From: an uncultured Candidatus Saccharibacteria bacterium
GTDB lineage: Bacteria > Patescibacteriota > WWE3 > UBA101185 > UBA10185
Direction: 5' to 3'
Assembly: GCA_964527375.1 (NCBI GenBank)
Contig: CAZGPL010000001.1
Location: forward strand, 1 to 34,189
DNA length: 34,189 nucleotides
In this document: positions 51 through 31,347 of the stretch, in pieces
Layout: every line of letters begins with the position of its first letter
Numbering within the stretch: position 1 is the stretch's first letter
Notes under the pieces: model-generated
The model's database searches: none
Seen by the model: only the letters and a program-made list of their open reading frames with translations
Told to the model about the DNA's origin: nothing
Position numbers and translations under genes: made by a program

Positions 51-98
51 GGGCTGAACCTAGGGTCCGACCTAGGGCTGAGCCTAGGGCTTAGCCCT
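51..98. repeat. Four tandem 12-nt units of a GC-rich dyad repeat (GGGCTGAACCta / GGGTCCGACCta / GGGCTGAGCCta / GGGCTTAGCCCta)
   Basis: Units start at 51, 63, 75 and 87, an exact 12-nt period. Each core is a 4-1-4 or 5-1-5 palindrome. The array abuts the TAG stop (97-99) of the radical SAM gene and fills most of the gap to the next ATG at 39. Confidence 0.85.
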
Positions 99-1637: not shown

Positions 1638-2654
1638 TTAACCTTCAACGTAATTACCCGTCTTTTTATCATATTTTTTTAGCTTTAATTCGGGTTTTTT
1701 CATTATACCAATAAGAAAATTAATTCCGTAATAAATGTGAGTTAAAAAAACTCCTTTCATAAAATCAAAATGGGCTTGCTCCTGATTTTCCTCATTTTTA
1801 GTTATTTTAAAAGAAGAAAAAAATAAAATCCCAAAATAAATTAACAAAAACAAAACGTAATAAAGAGAGAAATAAGGCCAAAAAACACTTAAAATAAATC
1901 CCCCCAGTAAACCAATTGTAAAAAGAGAAGGAGCAAAATACATAGGAATTCTTGAAGTTTGAGGGAAAATTCTTGCAAACTGACCCCTGTGCTGACCGTA
2001 TCTTGAAATCTGCTTTAAATATGGTTTAAAAACTTCTCTTCGGTGATGATAAACCAAAACATCTGGATCGTAAGGAAACTTTCCTCCATGTTTTTCAACA
2101 AGATCAAGACACAACTTGGTATCCTCACCAGGCCAAAACTCAACAGGGAATCCACCAACCTCTTCAAAAGCACTTTTCCTGACAAATAAATTAACAGAAG
2201 GATAATCATCCATTAATCTTTTTTCTTCCGGTTTGTATCTGTATGTAGTTTTCCCACTAACGATAAAAGATTCAAAAAGATACCCTGACATTCTTTCCAA
2301 ATATTCAGCACCCAAAGGTGTTACCGCAGGTCCACCCAGAGCATAAACTTCAGGATCCTCAAATACTTTAGCGGCATTTTTTAACCAACTATATTCAGGA
2401 TAAGAATCATCATCCAAAAAAGCTAAAATATCTCCGGTTGCATGTTCAGCACCCAAATTACGCTTTTTCCCGGGACCCACATTACCTGATTCCAATATTT
2501 TTATTCTTGTTCCACCAAAATCGTATTCTTCTTTTTCATCTGTAATAATAAAAACTTCAAATTCCTGATAATCTAATTTCTTTATCCTTGTAATACTCTC
2601 TTTAACATAATCATTTATTTTTCTAACCGGAATGATTATTGAAAATTTAAGCAT
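1638..2654 (-). CDS. GT2 glycosyltransferase with C-terminal transmembrane anchor
   Basis: 338 aa. FSIIIPVRK strand, AFLDDDSYP (DxD) and GEDTKLC motifs. The C-terminal ~100 aa are hydrophobic (2-3 TM helices). SD-like GGAGA lies about 9 nt upstream of ATG 2654. 8-nt overlap with the upstream gene. Confidence 0.8.
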   Translation of the reverse strand: MLKFSIIIPVRKINDYVKESITRIKKLDYQEFEVFIITDEKEEYDFGGTRIKILESGNVGPGKKRNLGAEHATGDILAFLDDDSYPEYSWLKNAAKVFEDPEVYALGGPAVTPLGAEYLERMSGYLFESFIVSGKTTYRYKPEEKRLMDDYPSVNLFVRKSAFEEVGGFPVEFWPGEDTKLCLDLVEKHGGKFPYDPDVLVYHHRREVFKPYLKQISRYGQHRGQFARIFPQTSRIPMYFAPSLFTIGLLGGFILSVFWPYFSLYYVLFLLIYFGILFFSSFKITKNEENQEQAHFDFMKGVFLTHIYYGINFLIGIMKKPELKLKKYDKKTGNYVEG

Positions 2655-3474
2655 TGATAGTTTCTCCTGTATTTATTTTCATATCTAAATCTTTATCGTA
2701 TATCCATTTTCTTTTTTTACTATCATCGTAAAATTTTAAAATTCTTAAACGATAGAAAACCGCCAAAGTATCTCTTACCATATTTCTTATATTTTTATCG
2801 AATACCATAAAAGGGGTAAAGTTGGTGTTTGATTGATCCCAATTAACGTATATCGGAGATTCATATATTTTTTTAAAGCCCAAATATCTTGAAACGGAAA
2901 GTATTTCTATATCAAAAGCAAATGCTTTTACCATTAATCTGGGAAGCACCGCTTCCAAAACTTCTCTTTTAAAAACCTTCAGGCCTGATTGAGTATCCTT
3001 AACACGAACACCTAATAATGTTTTTACAAAAATATAGTACCCCCAGCTATAAATTTTTCTAATCTTAGGATAGTTTATTTTAGATGCGGGGTGTCTTTTA
3101 CTGCCAACCATTATATCGGCGTCATACCACTCAAGATGCTCCAAGATTAGAGAAATACCGTTAGGATCAATGTCCATACCGGAGTCTATAAAGGCAATGT
3201 AATCCCCTCTAGCCCTAGCCATACCATACCTTATTGCAAAACCTTTACCTTTGTTGTTCTTGTAACCTAAAACCCTTACACTTCCTCGCTTAATAGAACT
3301 AGCATTCTCAAATGTTTTATCTAGAAAATATCCGTCAACAACAACAAGTATCTCGTAACTGAAACGTGTTTCCGACATAACATCATCAATATTTCTAATA
3401 TCTTTAAGAATGGTCTTCTCTTGTTTATAGGCAGGAATTATTACTGATACCATTTTCTTTGGTTTTCTCTTCAC
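2647..3474 (-). CDS. GT2 glycosyltransferase, polyprenol-phosphate-sugar-synthase-like
   Basis: VSVIIPAYKQE, VVVDG, AFIDSGMDIDP, and VKDTQSGLKVFKRE (the DTQxGxK motif of DPM1/Alg5-like enzymes). The longest ORF starts at GTG 3474. ATG 3453 (MVSVIIPAYK) is an equally plausible true start. Confidence 0.8.
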   Translation of the reverse strand: MKRKPKKMVSVIIPAYKQEKTILKDIRNIDDVMSETRFSYEILVVVDGYFLDKTFENASSIKRGSVRVLGYKNNKGKGFAIRYGMARARGDYIAFIDSGMDIDPNGISLILEHLEWYDADIMVGSKRHPASKINYPKIRKIYSWGYYIFVKTLLGVRVKDTQSGLKVFKREVLEAVLPRLMVKAFAFDIEILSVSRYLGFKKIYESPIYVNWDQSNTNFTPFMVFDKNIRNMVRDTLAVFYRLRILKFYDDSKKRKWIYDKDLDMKINTGETINA

Positions 3475-3502
3475 ACCCTTATTTTACTACATTTTTTGAT
3501 GA

Positions 3503-3549
3503 GGGCTGAGCCCTGTGCAGGGCTCAGCCTAGCTCCGGGCTCAGCCCGG
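3503..3549. repeat. GC-rich palindromic element: 26-nt perfect palindrome plus a 15-nt palindrome
   Basis: 3504-3529, GGCTGAGCCCTG-TG-CAGGGCTCAGCC, is self-complementary except for the central dinucleotide. 3535-3549, CCGGGCT-C-AGCCCGG, is a 7-1-7 palindrome. It is built from three GGGCTSAGCC(C) units. Confidence 0.9.
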
Positions 3550-3603
3550 GAAAACCCCGAAGGCATAGGAAAAAACTAAGCTTAAAATGGGAAAATTATA
3601 GGA

Positions 3604-3631
3604 GGGCTCAGCCCTGTGCAGGGCTGAGCCC
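3604..3631. repeat. GC-rich 28-nt perfect palindrome, second copy; possible 3' hairpin of the upstream flippase gene
   Basis: GGGCTCAGCCCTG-TG-CAGGGCTGAGCCC. It starts 8 nt beyond the flippase stop (3639-3641). On the minus strand it is followed by the moderately U-rich TCCTATAATTTTCCCATTTT. It is the same as the 3504-3529 copy except for a G:C to C:G swap in both arms. Confidence 0.9.
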
Positions 3632-3638
3632 GGAAAAC

Positions 3639-4961
3639 TTAGTCCGGCAAAACTTCCAACAACTCGTTAACTTCAGAAAAACTACTAAAATCCTTTTCTC
3701 CTATTCTACTAGGAACATTAAAATAAAAATAAACAGAAAGTGAAATTAAAATAAAAACACTGACTGCAATATTAACATTTATCACATCCCACAAAGTCTC
3801 ATGAAAAATATTCAAAAGTATGTATTGAATTAAAACCCCGGGCAACAGTAATAATCCCACTTTCTTTTTGTCTATAGCCAAGAAAAACATGACTAGAAAA
3901 TTTATCAAAACATAAAACGCTACAAAAACTGAAAACAAAGGTAAATACTTCACGGAATTTTCAAATGCTTTTCCGAAAAATAAATTCGTAATAATTCCAG
4001 GGAAAATCTGATAGCAAAGTACCCCTACAACTAGAATTAAGATCAAAAGCATGAGAAGCCTTTTCAAACTTTTCATAAAACTCTTACCTCCGGCGTAAAG
4101 TGCGGTAATTTTAGGAAACATTACAACGGAAACAGCTCCGGAACCAAACAATAGTATCTTTCCAAGAGTCATGGTTCCTGCATAGTATCCCGCATCAGTT
4201 GAGTCAAAATATTTCTTCACCATTATGAGATCAACATTATTCAAAGCCATCAGAGAAAAATTTACTAAAACAACGGTAGCCCCAAAGGAAAATATTTTTT
4301 TGAAACTATCTGTCACATCTACTTTTTTAAGATTTTTTAAGTTTAAGCCCAAGATTAAAAATCCCGAAGAGAAAACCAAAAAAGAAACAATTGGAGCGGC
4401 GCTATAAACTCCTCTTAAACCAAATCCCATAAAAACAAAAATCGTAGGTATTAAAAACCTAACAAAAAGGCTGAAAATATGAAATACGGAGTATTTTTTA
4501 AACTTCTGAGTTCCCTGAAGATAGGAATTAGGAATAACTATCAAAAAACCCATCCCGACAGATATTCCAAACAAAGTTATTAAAAAACTATCCTGAATAT
4601 TAATATAACCTGAGATAAATTCCCGTAAAGAGAAAATGATAAAAAATAAAACAGACCCTACTAAAAGTGAGAGCTTAAAAGATTTAAAAAATAAAACCAT
4701 CAGTTTATTATCATCTTTTTTTGAATATATTTCGGCATTAATTTTTATCAATGCTGTTCCAAAGACTCCTGCAAAAACCCCTACCATTGAGGATAAAGAT
4801 AGAAGCGCGTTGAAAGTTCCGTAATCTTCAACTGACAACTTTCTTCCCAAAACAAACTGTAATAAATAACTAAAAACGGAACCAACTATGGTTGCGGTTC
4901 CAACCAAAGCAGTCTCCATGATATCTTTTCTCGCTCTCAAGCTTTTCAACTTATTTAGCAT
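3639..4961 (-). CDS. MOP-superfamily (Wzx-like) polysaccharide/oligosaccharide flippase
   Basis: Polytopic, roughly 12-14 hydrophobic segments. The N-terminus, MLNKLKSLRARKD...LLQFVLGRKLSVEDYGTFNAL, is typical of polysaccharide-biosynthesis (Polysacc_synt) proteins. Start is placed at ATG 4961 because GGAGG (4968-4972) sits 6 nt upstream. The longest ORF extends to 4991. Confidence 0.7.
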   Translation of the reverse strand: MLNKLKSLRARKDIMETALVGTATIVGSVFSYLLQFVLGRKLSVEDYGTFNALLSLSSMVGVFAGVFGTALIKINAEIYSKKDDNKLMVLFFKSFKLSLLVGSVLFFIIFSLREFISGYINIQDSFLITLFGISVGMGFLIVIPNSYLQGTQKFKKYSVFHIFSLFVRFLIPTIFVFMGFGLRGVYSAAPIVSFLVFSSGFLILGLNLKNLKKVDVTDSFKKIFSFGATVVLVNFSLMALNNVDLIMVKKYFDSTDAGYYAGTMTLGKILLFGSGAVSVVMFPKITALYAGGKSFMKSLKRLLMLLILILVVGVLCYQIFPGIITNLFFGKAFENSVKYLPLFSVFVAFYVLINFLVMFFLAIDKKKVGLLLLPGVLIQYILLNIFHETLWDVINVNIAVSVFILISLSVYFYFNVPSRIGEKDFSSFSEVNELLEVLPD

Positions 4962-6681
4962 AGACACCCTCCATTTCATTTTTATAAACATTGTATAAAG
5001 TAATACCTCTTAAACTAATTGAATCAAAATAACTTAACTCCATACCGCTTTCACTATTTGAAGTATCGTCCCAAACCGGATAGACGAAGTATTTTGTTCT
5101 GTCAGCAAAAGGTTTGAGTTCTTTAATGACTGCCCAAGCTCCAAATTCCCTAAAAAATGGCCATATCTGCGTATAATATTTCTCTTTAAAACCTACTGTC
5201 ATGGTGGTTTTCAAATCTTTACCAAACTTTTTATAAACTAACTCTTCAAAAGATACCCCACTTGAAAAAGCTGAACCCTGTTCTTCGGAAAGTTTTTTAA
5301 AATAATTAACTATTTCCTCCATTCCGATCAACCACTTGGGCTCTAAAACCTTAACACCCGTCTTCAAACCACCAAACATTGGATTAAAATATGAAAGATA
5401 ATCAGGATGTACATAAATATTGGTATAAAAAGCTGGAATCAGGAACAAAAGTACGGCTATAAATTTATTCCATGCCTTTTTAAGATTAATTCTATCTAAA
5501 ATCCAAATGAAAAATAGAGATGAAATTAATGAAATTACACTAAAAGCCGGCAAAATATATCTATCAAGTTTTTTTGTGGGTAAAGTTAACTGAATAAAAT
5601 AGAAAAAGATGAAAATGAAAAGAAAATCGAAAAAACTTCTCTCGTTGTCTGACATTTTTCTTCTTGTAATTAAAGCTCCGATGAACCCAATCAAAAGGTA
5701 TATGGATGATCTTAGACCCAAAACAACAAAATAAAAGCTAGGACCCGGATCTTCTATCAACTCACCAAAATAAAATTGAATATGGTCGCCCTCTACCCCT
5801 ATATCGGCTATGCCTGCGTACAATGTTTGAATTACTTTAAAGGGAATTACCCACATTGCCGGCCAAAATACAAAAAAGACTGAAATTGAAACCAATAACC
5901 ATGGGAAAAAGACTACACTAAAATCTTTTACCAATCTAAAAAAATGGCTGAAGTTAATTACAGGCCTCTCCTTAAGTAAAAGTTTATATTTCCCGTTACG
6001 GAAAAGGTACATAAACGAGGAAAGTCCGTAAAAAGGTACTAAAAATAAAGCTGAGGTTTTGGTTAGTAAGGCAAAACCTGCAAAAACACCCGAAATAATA
6101 AGCCTTTTTTTATTCTTAATATCAAGAAAATAGTAGTGCATCCAAACAACACTGGCTAGCATGAACGTGGATACCATTCCTTCGAGATGAAACATCCTAG
6201 TCAATCCTAAATAAAAAGGCTCTAAAGAAAGCAGAAGAACAGCTAAAACGGCATATCTTAAATTTAAAGCTTTTTTTAAAGCATAAAATAGAAAGGAAGT
6301 GGTTAAAGATATTGTCAGAACAACTAGAAACTTTTGAACAAAATCTAAATGAAATATCACACCAACGTCATCCCCGGCTGTTAACGAAATCCCTTTATGA
6401 GAAGCCCATAAATTGGTTATTTTCGCCCCCGCGCTTCCTGCCCACATCAGAGTCACTCCCGGATGATATTTTTGCAGAGTCGCCTCGAAATTTCCACTAA
6501 AGACACCACTTCCAAAATCATAAGATCTAGCTTTCCACCTCCAAACATCAGTATTAAAATTATCATGACCTAAGGATGGAATCCTTATCAAAACAGAAAA
6601 CACAAAAACTAATATTTCCAGGCTGAGCCCGGGGCTGAGCCCTAAAATTCCTTTTTTTTCTATTCCTGCATTCTTTTTCAT
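4951..6681 (-). CDS. GT-C-fold membrane glycosyltransferase (ArnT/PMT-like), paralog of 8370-10016
   Basis: 576 aa. About 11-13 TM segments followed by a soluble ~130-aa C-terminal domain. Acidic first-loop motif GHDNFNTDVWRW after TM1. Shares YHPGVTLMW, EPFYLG..R..HLE, LLTKTS and KKLDRYILP motifs with the 8370-10016 product. Codons 11-22 (GILGLSPGLSLE) are encoded by a copy of the GC-rich repeat. Confidence 0.7.
   Translation of the reverse strand: MKKNAGIEKKGILGLSPGLSLEILVFVFSVLIRIPSLGHDNFNTDVWRWKARSYDFGSGVFSGNFEATLQKYHPGVTLMWAGSAGAKITNLWASHKGISLTAGDDVGVIFHLDFVQKFLVVLTISLTTSFLFYALKKALNLRYAVLAVLLLSLEPFYLGLTRMFHLEGMVSTFMLASVVWMHYYFLDIKNKKRLIISGVFAGFALLTKTSALFLVPFYGLSSFMYLFRNGKYKLLLKERPVINFSHFFRLVKDFSVVFFPWLLVSISVFFVFWPAMWVIPFKVIQTLYAGIADIGVEGDHIQFYFGELIEDPGPSFYFVVLGLRSSIYLLIGFIGALITRRKMSDNERSFFDFLFIFIFFYFIQLTLPTKKLDRYILPAFSVISLISSLFFIWILDRINLKKAWNKFIAVLLFLIPAFYTNIYVHPDYLSYFNPMFGGLKTGVKVLEPKWLIGMEEIVNYFKKLSEEQGSAFSSGVSFEELVYKKFGKDLKTTMTVGFKEKYYTQIWPFFREFGAWAVIKELKPFADRTKYFVYPVWDDTSNSESGMELSYFDSISLRGITLYNVYKNEMEGVYAK
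4968..4972 (-). promoter_or_regulatory. Shine-Dalgarno GGAGG for the flippase start at 4961
   Basis: The minus strand reads GGAGGgtgtctATG. The site lies inside the last codons of the upstream GT-C gene, which suggests translational coupling. Confidence 0.6.
6616..6640. repeat. GC-rich repeat copy A (TTCCAGGCTGAGCCCGGGGCTGAGC), intragenic
   Basis: Matches 6693-6717 at 23 of 25 positions. It lies 39 nt downstream (minus sense) of the ATG at 6681, in frame within the GT-C gene. Confidence 0.85.
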
Positions 6682-6692
6682 AATATTTTTAC

Positions 6693-6717
6693 TTCCGGGC
6701 TGAGCCCGGGGCTGAAC
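6693..6717. repeat. GC-rich repeat copy B (TTCCGGGCTGAGCCCGGGGCTGAAC), intergenic
   Basis: Lies in the 40-nt gap between the stop of 6722-8383 and the ATG at 6681. Direct repeat of copy A, offset by 77 nt. Confidence 0.85.
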
Positions 6718-31146: not shown

Positions 31147-31346
31147 TTTTGCTCCTCTTTTAATTTTTCATTTATTAAAGTATTTATCCTAGCTATATCT
31201 TTTCTCAAATTATTTGCTTTTTTAATATTCTTTTCTTTTTTTTGCAAAATATCGGACACAACTTTTTGAAGATCTTTTCTTACCTTAGAAAGTTCTTCTT
31301 TCAAATCTTTTATTGATTTTTTTCTGTATTCTAAAATGTCTATCAT
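31143..31346 (-). CDS. rpmC: 50S ribosomal protein L29 (uL29)
   Basis: 67 aa. Helical, Lys/Glu-rich (LKEELSKVRKDLQK...). Position between rplP and rpsQ. ATGA overlap. Confidence 0.9.
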   Translation of the reverse strand: MIDILEYRKKSIKDLKEELSKVRKDLQKVVSDILQKKEKNIKKANNLRKDIARINTLINEKLKEEQK

Positions 31347-31347
31347 T

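Follow-up and report, generated by a model that had tools for sequence, protein, structure and literature searches.

A gap of 164 nt (positions 3475-3638) between a polysaccharide flippase gene and a family 2 glycosyltransferase (GT2) gene contains a group of perfect palindromes. It is located in a stretch of 34,189 nt, here called the window, which covers positions 1 to 34,189 of contig CAZGPL010000001.1 of the uncultured Candidatus Saccharibacteria bacterium assembly GCA_964527375.1. The palindromes are probably two clusters of a genome-wide family of repetitive extragenic palindromic (REP)-type elements, whose cognate enzyme is a single-copy Y1/HUH transposase of the REP-associated tyrosine transposase (RAYT, or TnpA-REP) type that is encoded outside the window. 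The family and its over-representation, the extragenic bias, the repeat-flanked transposase gene and the fold of its product, the co-variation of repeat and enzyme and the presence/absence polymorphism among relatives were all computed directly. As a REP/RAYT-type system in Patescibacteria it would belong to a kind that is itself well known; new are the 11-nt unit, the 17-nt spacing and the absence of a GTAG tag.

Repeat units in the gap and in the genome

The gap is the largest genuine intergenic gap of the window, as stated in the original prediction. The sole longer stretch free of open reading frames (ORFs) at a threshold of 70 aa (31147-31347) holds a 67-aa L29-like gene. The palindromes described in that prediction were recovered. 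The left one (3504-3529) reads GGCTGAGCCCTG-TG-CAGGGCTCAGCC with arms of 12 nt, and the right one (3604-3631) reads GGGCTCAGCCCTG-TG-CAGGGCTGAGCCC with arms of 13 nt. The arms are 100% complementary in both palindromes, which also share the orientation of the loop TGTGCA. The third palindrome, with a 7-1-7 architecture, is present between them (Table 1). The minus-strand motif CCTTCGG was found as CCGAAGG one base away from its predicted position, and the minus-strand TATAAT is present as ATTATA.

Both large palindromes are built as inverted dimers from the 11-nt unit GGGCTSAGCCC. This unit equals its own reverse complement save for the centre base and is often extended to TTCC-GGGCTSAGCCC-GGAA. 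Since the 11-mer is palindromic except at its centre, each 28-nt hairpin consists of a unit, a loop and an inverted unit. The two hairpins of the window differ in which unit orientation stands first (G...C versus C...G). This modifies the earlier claim of a compensatory G:C to C:G swap: the centre is indeed G/C in the left and C/G in the right palindrome, but the difference reflects the order of the units and not a pair of point mutations within one hairpin. Five units of the family are located in the gap. The single unit of the 7-1-7 palindrome is joined to dimer A via a TAGCTCC linker at a spacing of 17 nt and repeats the preceding unit in direct orientation, again with C at the centre. Folding as single-stranded DNA gave -15.5 to -21.2 kcal/mol for the hairpins (z -4.7 to -6.1), and the single unit folds alone at -7.2 kcal/mol.

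The genome of the window (G000) is an assembly of 647,574 bp in 92 contigs with 34.5% GC and 83% completeness. It harbors 48 exact units, where about 0.05 are expected from base composition. When up to one mismatch was allowed, 69 units in 27 clusters were detected; the window alone contains 10 of this kind compared to 0.15 expected from shuffles. The density is about one unit per 9 kb, grouped in arrays. Units stand alone, are joined by a GGAGCT-type linker into direct dimers or arrays, or are paired across a TGYRCA loop into inverted dimers, and the start-to-start spacing is 17 nt in 21 of the 32 pairs of adjacent units. Genome-wide, 10 of the 11 inverted dimers that have a TGYRCA-type loop, which are the 28-nt perfect hairpins, show complementary centres, and the centres are identical in all six direct dimers with a GGAGCT/AGCTCC linker. 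The identical 27-mer of the left hairpin was found again at C5:18627 and C7:17753, that of the right hairpin at C43:639, beside the transposase gene described below. An exact 27-mer scan of a species-representative genome collection matched only one other Patescibacteria assembly. Clusters were also located at contig ends or gaps of G000, namely in C2 (28529-28573 of 28581), C56 (3643-3670 of 3673), C74 (2576-2601 of 2601) and C24 (1140, beside a run of N). This indicates that the assembly is interrupted by the family, whose true copy number is probably higher.

The placement of the units was analyzed with crude ORF calls throughout. Of the 69 units, 45 are positioned outside these ORFs in a genome that is approximately 90% coding, and most of the seemingly genic units fall into over-extended ORF starts. 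Eleven of 15 occupied spacers separate co-directional genes and four convergent genes. None of the 15 is divergent, compared to a background of 15%, a number of cases too small for significance. Clusters lie at a median distance of 7 nt from a stop codon, compared to 20.5 nt from a start codon (one-sided Mann-Whitney p = 0.005, crude calls). Two clusters are truly in frame with a gene. One is located in valS (RAEPGAQPG, C5:17768-17790) and the other in a PcrA/AddA-type helicase gene (RAQPGEGSARDGLSPE, C7:19622-19648). Both inserts comprise two units in 23-27 nt and fall into loops that differ between relatives. G000, G008 and G011 share the helicase insert, which is missing in G012 and G001. 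A similar insert was seen in the UvrD-type helicase gene of G006 (L035, about 2480-2520). Intragenic REPs in replication and repair genes are described by Di Nocera et al. 2013 (PMC3733652).

A repeat-flanked transposase that co-varies with the unit

A scan of the genus with the Pfam model Y1_Tnp gave one match in G000 (C43:193-429). The corresponding ORF (C43:16-579) is single-copy in this genome and encodes 188 aa, which score 41 bits against Y1_Tnp and thus pass the cut-off of 23. Six units directly follow the gene at its 3' side, and the first of them codes for GLSP close to the C-terminus. Units are present on both sides of the orthologues in G008 (two genes), in G011 and G006, and on five metagenome contigs. 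In an alignment of 25 homologues the motifs YHVYNRGV, NHxHLL, GHLFQ and YIHxNP are invariant or nearly so, and a profile search aligned Tyr135 with the catalytic tyrosine of ISDra2 TnpA. The AlphaFold2 model of the protein has a mean pLDDT of 90.2. Its top fold match in the PDB is 4er8, the E. coli TnpA-REP with a REP hairpin (E 9e-6, TM 0.61/0.69); the transposases of IS608 and ISDra2 come next with TM values of about 0.45. A single-sequence search of the PDB with the transposase gave nothing relevant, and a profile search gave weak matches only (ISDra2 TnpA, E 0.02; 4er8, E 0.67). The protein family comprises about 576 members in a large protein collection. Those named by organism derive from Patescibacteria or Saccharimonadales assemblies, and several members are labelled 'REP element-mobilizing transposase RayT' by the Joint Genome Institute (JGI).

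Across species and metagenomes the transposase gene occupies two gene contexts: it is either convergent with lepA or located between the genes of an Lcl_C protein and of a UvrD-type helicase. No tnpB-sized ORF was found adjacent to it. Each slot adjoins a paralogous gene for a secreted Lcl_C-domain protein with the C-terminal sequence SYAVRCVRRD, and the transposase and this neighbour may have been duplicated together.

The unit changes along with the enzyme. A variant, GGACTSAGTCC, occurs in 20 copies in G008 and in none of the other 13 genomes of the genus, and G008 is the only genome with two transposase paralogues. The lepA-adjacent paralogue of G008 has GGGCT units on its flanks. The helicase-adjacent paralogue is immediately flanked by GGACT units, with two GGGCT-type units further upstream. 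In the transposase tree, G000_C43 and G008_C30 form a clade (support 100/99). The GGACT-associated G008_C25 groups with P0013, outside the clade of G000_C43, G008_C30, G011_C49, P0009 and P0011 (96/99). Four transposases on independent metagenome contigs, which lie in these two gene contexts as well, fit this tree: GGACT units border P0013 and P0015, and GGGCT units border P0009 and P0011. Close relatives are present in samples of the anaerobic digester or biogas type. The homologues of three other genera of the family are each bordered by a different palindrome, which is dispersed only in its own genome. These palindromes are GGAGCWGCTCC (8 copies), GGGACAGTCC (32 copies) and AGGTCSGACCT (15 copies), again with a spacing of 17 nt. 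Further compensated unit variants, GGGTTCAACCC and GGGTTGAACCC, were observed in the spacer after valS in G008. A dimer in G006 (C3, about 1497-1523), GGGTTCAGCCC...GGGCTGAACCC, shows a change that is compensated between the two units of the hairpin and not within one.

Units are variably present within the genus. Seven of the 13 other genomes hold 12-44 units and six hold none; at most one unit per genome was found in the 27 genomes searched from other genera. The junction of the GT2 and flippase genes is empty, short and AT-rich in G011 and G005, both of which bear units elsewhere, and it is also empty in G007, G012 and G004. G002 has one inverted dimer at this junction and G009 four units. 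In G008 the two-cluster layout of the window recurs, made of the variant GGACTSAGTCC. The spacer after valS shows the same kind of presence/absence polymorphism. The search of the same genome and its relatives that the original prediction had proposed thus revealed multiple insertions as well as empty sites when the repeat unit was used as the query.

Alternative explanations and known systems

Several observations weigh against the assignment to a REP/RAYT-type system. Most described REPs have a conserved tag, GTAG or CGTC; GTAG was found beside none of 64 cores and CGTC beside one. The commonest core flanks are TCCG, xCAG and CCCG, and CTAG abuts 13 of 128 core ends. The best NCBIfam model is the 'REP-associated tyrosine transposase' (NF047646), but the score of 45.7 bits (range 36-46) is below the equivalog cut-off of 80, and the enzyme carries FQ at the position of the WQ of the published classes. 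The 5' flank of the transposase gene is lost to a contig end in G000. Furthermore, no such transposase was detected in G002, G005, G009 and G010 (76-92% complete), all of which bear units. The lepA-adjacent slot is assembled and empty in all four of these genomes. The helicase-adjacent slot is assembled and empty in G005, and its marker gene was not found in G002, G009 and G010. This suggests that the repeats can outlast the enzyme, or that the gene sits elsewhere in an unassembled part of the genome. Finally, all genomes compared are metagenome assemblies, which the repeats fragment, with several clusters at contig ends.

Two alternatives concern the nature of the enzyme and the function of the hairpins. 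The palindromes could be the ends or miniature derivatives of an active insertion sequence (IS) of the IS200/IS605 type, similar to palindrome-associated or miniature inverted-repeat transposable elements (PATEs, MITEs), with the C43 gene as an ordinary selfish transposase and not a domesticated RAYT. The protein is indeed a member of Pfam Y1_Tnp that stays below the RayT equivalog cut-off, and IS200/IS605 transposases likewise recognise subterminal hairpins (PMC8266576). However, the transposase gene is single-copy in G000, occupies the same chromosomal contexts in different species and metagenomes, lacks an accompanying tnpB gene and encodes a fold nearer to TnpA-REP than to the transposases of IS608 or ISDra2, and the dispersed copies are hairpins of 11-28 nt without common internal sequence. 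Classical IS200-like TnpA genes do occur in two members of the genus, yet these two genomes, G012 and G013, have no repeat units. This origin is therefore regarded as very unlikely. The classical genes (G012:C3:361501-361866 and G013:C84:885-1235) are full-length, score 96-117 bits against Y1_Tnp and are distinct from the RAYT-like lineage. Even less likely are transcription terminators or mRNA-processing sites of this lineage that resemble each other through selection, with neither mobility nor a link to the transposase. The position at a median of 7 nt behind stop codons, the absence from divergent spacers and the very stable stems would fit such a role; the predicted fold of the gap as minus-strand RNA has -75.5 kcal/mol (z -4.7) and includes both 28-nt hairpins. 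But there is no T-run directly after the stems, the sole match to the terminator consensus is a weak 5-bp stem, and relatives have unrelated hairpins after lepA. Units also occur in tandem arrays, in frame in valS and the helicase gene and around the transposase gene, half of the genus has none, and the unit variant follows the transposase paralogue.

A short dyad-symmetric motif that is strongly over-represented and specific for a lineage could also be the site of another protein, such as a DNA-uptake sequence for competence, an operator or a nucleoid-protein site; Saccharibacteria (Patescibacteria) are reported to be naturally competent (PMC10187176). Against this, there is only about one unit per 9 kb, and the units are clustered in arrays and mostly extragenic. 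Moreover, the motif shifts between sister genomes via compensated changes that preserve the hairpin, and it always borders the Y1 transposase gene, so that this explanation appears slightly less probable again than terminators. The lowest probability of all is given to the interval 3503-3631 being one element, either a MITE of 130 nt or a small structured RNA gene with palindromic ends, as had been proposed earlier. The AT-rich core is bracketed by two palindromes, the arms 3503-3529 and 3605-3631 are 85% complementary, and the G008 junction has the same two-cluster layout. The core, however, has no second match in G000 or elsewhere in the genus and is wholly different in G008 despite the shared layout, and this indicates that the 130-nt interval is not a single element. 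A target-site duplication was not visible at the borders when filled and empty junctions were compared by eye. A MITE defined by terminal inverted repeats, shared internal sequence and a target-site duplication was rejected, as the core lacks a second copy. What stands of the proposed MITE-like insertion is a multi-copy, variably present family with empty-site alleles in relatives; only its palindromic parts recur. The proposed small RNA found no support. A covariance-model scan of positions 3300-3800 with Rfam 15 (E up to 10) gave a best score of 20 bits against a gathering score of 93 and only chance-level matches to microRNAs and small RNAs.

In most defining features the system agrees with known REP/RAYT systems, the exceptions being the GTAG tag and the curated RayT score. 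The closest are the 'REPtrons' of E. coli, Pseudomonas, Stenotrophomonas and Marinomonas (PMC8266576; PDB 4er8), in which REPs or bacterial interspersed mosaic elements (BIMEs) are combined with a TnpA-REP. In both cases short extragenic palindromes are present in many copies and often grouped in inverted or tandem fashion, the HUH/Tyr transposase is encoded by a single-copy gene with its own repeats at its borders, and the sequence of the repeat co-evolves with that of the enzyme. Group 3 REPs, too, are perfect palindromes of small size. Unlike REPtrons, the system described here lacks the GTAG tag and has a unit of 11 nt (15-19 nt with flanks) with a marked 17-nt spacing. Its enzyme is only 13% identical to 4er8 over the fold alignment, in addition to the FQ motif and the low NCBIfam score, and the host is not a proteobacterium but has a Patescibacteria genome of 0.65 Mb.

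Among the TnpA-Y1 classes of Quentin et al. 2018, the enzyme resembles subclasses 2.4 and 2.6 (Bertels groups 4 and 5) in its length, which is about 180-195 aa in these subclasses (PMC6006769, Table 1). The motifs NHIH and YIHxNP/A correspond to NH[IFV]H and YIxNNP / YIH[QN]NP, a likeness based on the published motif strings only. In subclass 2.4, REP sequences are inserted within the tnpA gene, comparable to the unit that encodes GLSP near the C-terminus here. Both subclasses are described from Cyanobacteria, Bacteroidetes and scattered phyla, and a word search of that paper for Patescibacteria, Saccharibacteria, Parcubacteria and TM7 gave no hits. In REP doublets forming hairpins (REPINs), it is the inverted REP pair that apparently replicates, the RAYT gene is inherited vertically in a single copy, and each RAYT paralogue within one genome has its own repeat family (Bertels and Rainey, PMC3116915). 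All three features have counterparts in the genus analyzed here. In contrast to REPINs, the inverted dimers are only 28 nt long including a 6-nt loop, direct tandem arrays occur about as often, and the longer doublet 3503-3631 has a unique, non-repeated spacer.

Rickettsia palindromic elements (RPE) measure about 100-150 bp and have no known dedicated transposase. Like the clusters in valS and the PcrA/AddA-type helicase gene, which are positioned in variable loops, they include palindromic copies in frame inside essential genes. The inserts found here differ in being 23-27 nt long and consisting of two units.

Proposed mechanism and gene context

For catalysis, the route of mobilisation and the effect at the RNA level, we infer the following course. 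The enzyme would recognise the folded single-stranded hairpin, as do E. coli TnpA-REP and the IS200/IS605 transposases (PMC8266576). By the same analogy it would cut and rejoin through a 5'-phosphotyrosine intermediate, with the HUH residues H75/H77 binding the metal and Tyr135 as the catalytic tyrosine, and copies would be seeded or removed while the DNA is single-stranded. In the gap, REP-type units would have entered what was at first a short AT-rich spacer separating the flippase gene from the GT2 gene; the AT-rich spacer between the two clusters is a remnant of the original intergenic DNA. The transcribed hairpins are probable barriers to 3'-to-5' RNA decay or partial terminators. They might uncouple the flippase mRNA from the genes downstream (GT2, GT2 and radical SAM), whose own conserved upstream block would be retained.

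REP/RAYT systems have been studied mainly in Proteobacteria, and the mechanism of their spread is described as still unsolved (PMC8266576). A search of a paper library for articles connecting RAYTs, REPINs or REP elements to Patescibacteria or the candidate phyla radiation gave incidental co-mentions only. The same REP/RAYT logic would here operate in a 0.65-Mb genome of the episymbiont type, where very little repeated DNA is expected, with a very small unit of 11 nt and without the GTAG guide needed by the best-studied enzymes. A wider generalization is put forward tentatively, as a possibility that falls short of being probable: REP/RAYT partnerships may be widespread and vertically kept in ultra-small Patescibacteria, as a minimal module of an 11-nt dyad and 17-nt spacing without a GTAG guide, whose specificity can be switched by one compensated base-pair change (GGGCT/AGCCC to GGACT/AGTCC) together with a diverged paralogue. 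If so, the genus would represent a natural specificity-switch series of genomes with enzyme and repeats, with repeats only, with neither, and with two enzyme/repeat pairs. It offers cognate and non-cognate pairs that are one compensated base pair apart, as well as genomes in which repeats are present but the enzyme was apparently lost. Persistence in such reduced genomes would argue for a benefit to the host, for example the punctuation of operons behind stop codons. Since the repeats break assemblies, are located within essential genes (valS, helicase) and introduce hairpins into a surface-glycan operon, they matter for the annotation and binning of Patescibacteria.

The flippase and GT2 genes are both encoded on the minus strand and are part of a long same-strand glycan-assembly operon (Table 1). 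On the transcribed strand, dimer B begins 7 nt past the flippase stop codon, and the left repeat cluster abuts a block that is conserved in the genus directly upstream of the GT2 gene.

Table 1. Repeat clusters and neighbouring features of the flippase/GT2 junction and other family clusters in the window.
Feature	Positions	Strand	Remarks
Family 2 glycosyltransferase (GT2), downstream flanking gene	2647..3474	-	True start may be the ATG at 3453
Genus-conserved block (A)ATGTAGTAnAATA, TAnAAT -10-like hexamer	3481..3493	-	Directly upstream of the GT2 gene
REP-type inverted dimer A: GGGCTGAGCCC + loop TGTGCA + GGGCTCAGCC(t)	3503..3530		Perfect 12-bp stem, 3504-3515/3518-3529
Single REP-type unit with flanks, CCGGGCT-C-AGCCCGG	3535..3549		7-1-7 palindrome
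Unique AT-rich spacer with CCGAAGG (3557-3563) and ATTATA (3595-3600)	3550..3603		Outside the repeat family
REP-type inverted dimer B: GGGCTCAGCCC + loop TGTGCA + GGGCTGAGCCC	3604..3631		Perfect 13-bp stem
Polysaccharide flippase (Polysacc_synt_3), upstream flanking gene	3639..4991	-	
Family cluster of four units with 12-nt period, two degenerate (GGGCTGAACCT, GGGTCCGACCT)	51..97		3' end of radical SAM gene
Family cluster with units at 6620, 6632 and 6697	6620..6707		Junction of two PMT_2 genes

The hairpins had been read as a terminator or processing site for the flippase gene, followed by a restart promoter. An intrinsic terminator consists of a GC-rich hairpin and a T-run, and the 12-13-bp stems are not directly followed by a T-run; the minus strand reads TCCTATAATTTTCCC after dimer B and TCATCAAAAAATG after dimer A. 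This makes a decay barrier or partial attenuator more likely than a classical terminator; a role of the hairpins as terminators or mRNA stabilisers would be plausible. A scan for promoter and terminator consensus sequences gave no full sigma-70 promoter and one weak 5-bp terminator-like sub-stem. The TATAAT within the AT-rich spacer was seen only in the G000 copy of the junction. The -10-like block on the minus strand, TGTAGTAAAAT (TGTAGTAnAAT, about 3491-3481), is conserved across the genus just upstream of GT2 and was seen by eye in G000, G011, G005, G009, G008 and G007, with or without repeats. Being conserved irrespective of the repeats, the block is to be preferred over the non-conserved TATAAT as a candidate restart signal, and judged from its sequence it may be an internal promoter or a 5' leader element. 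In G001 (C3), the GT2/flippase junction harbors an extra gene of approximately 0.8 kb in place of the spacer found in the other genomes, which is methyltransferase-like by eye.

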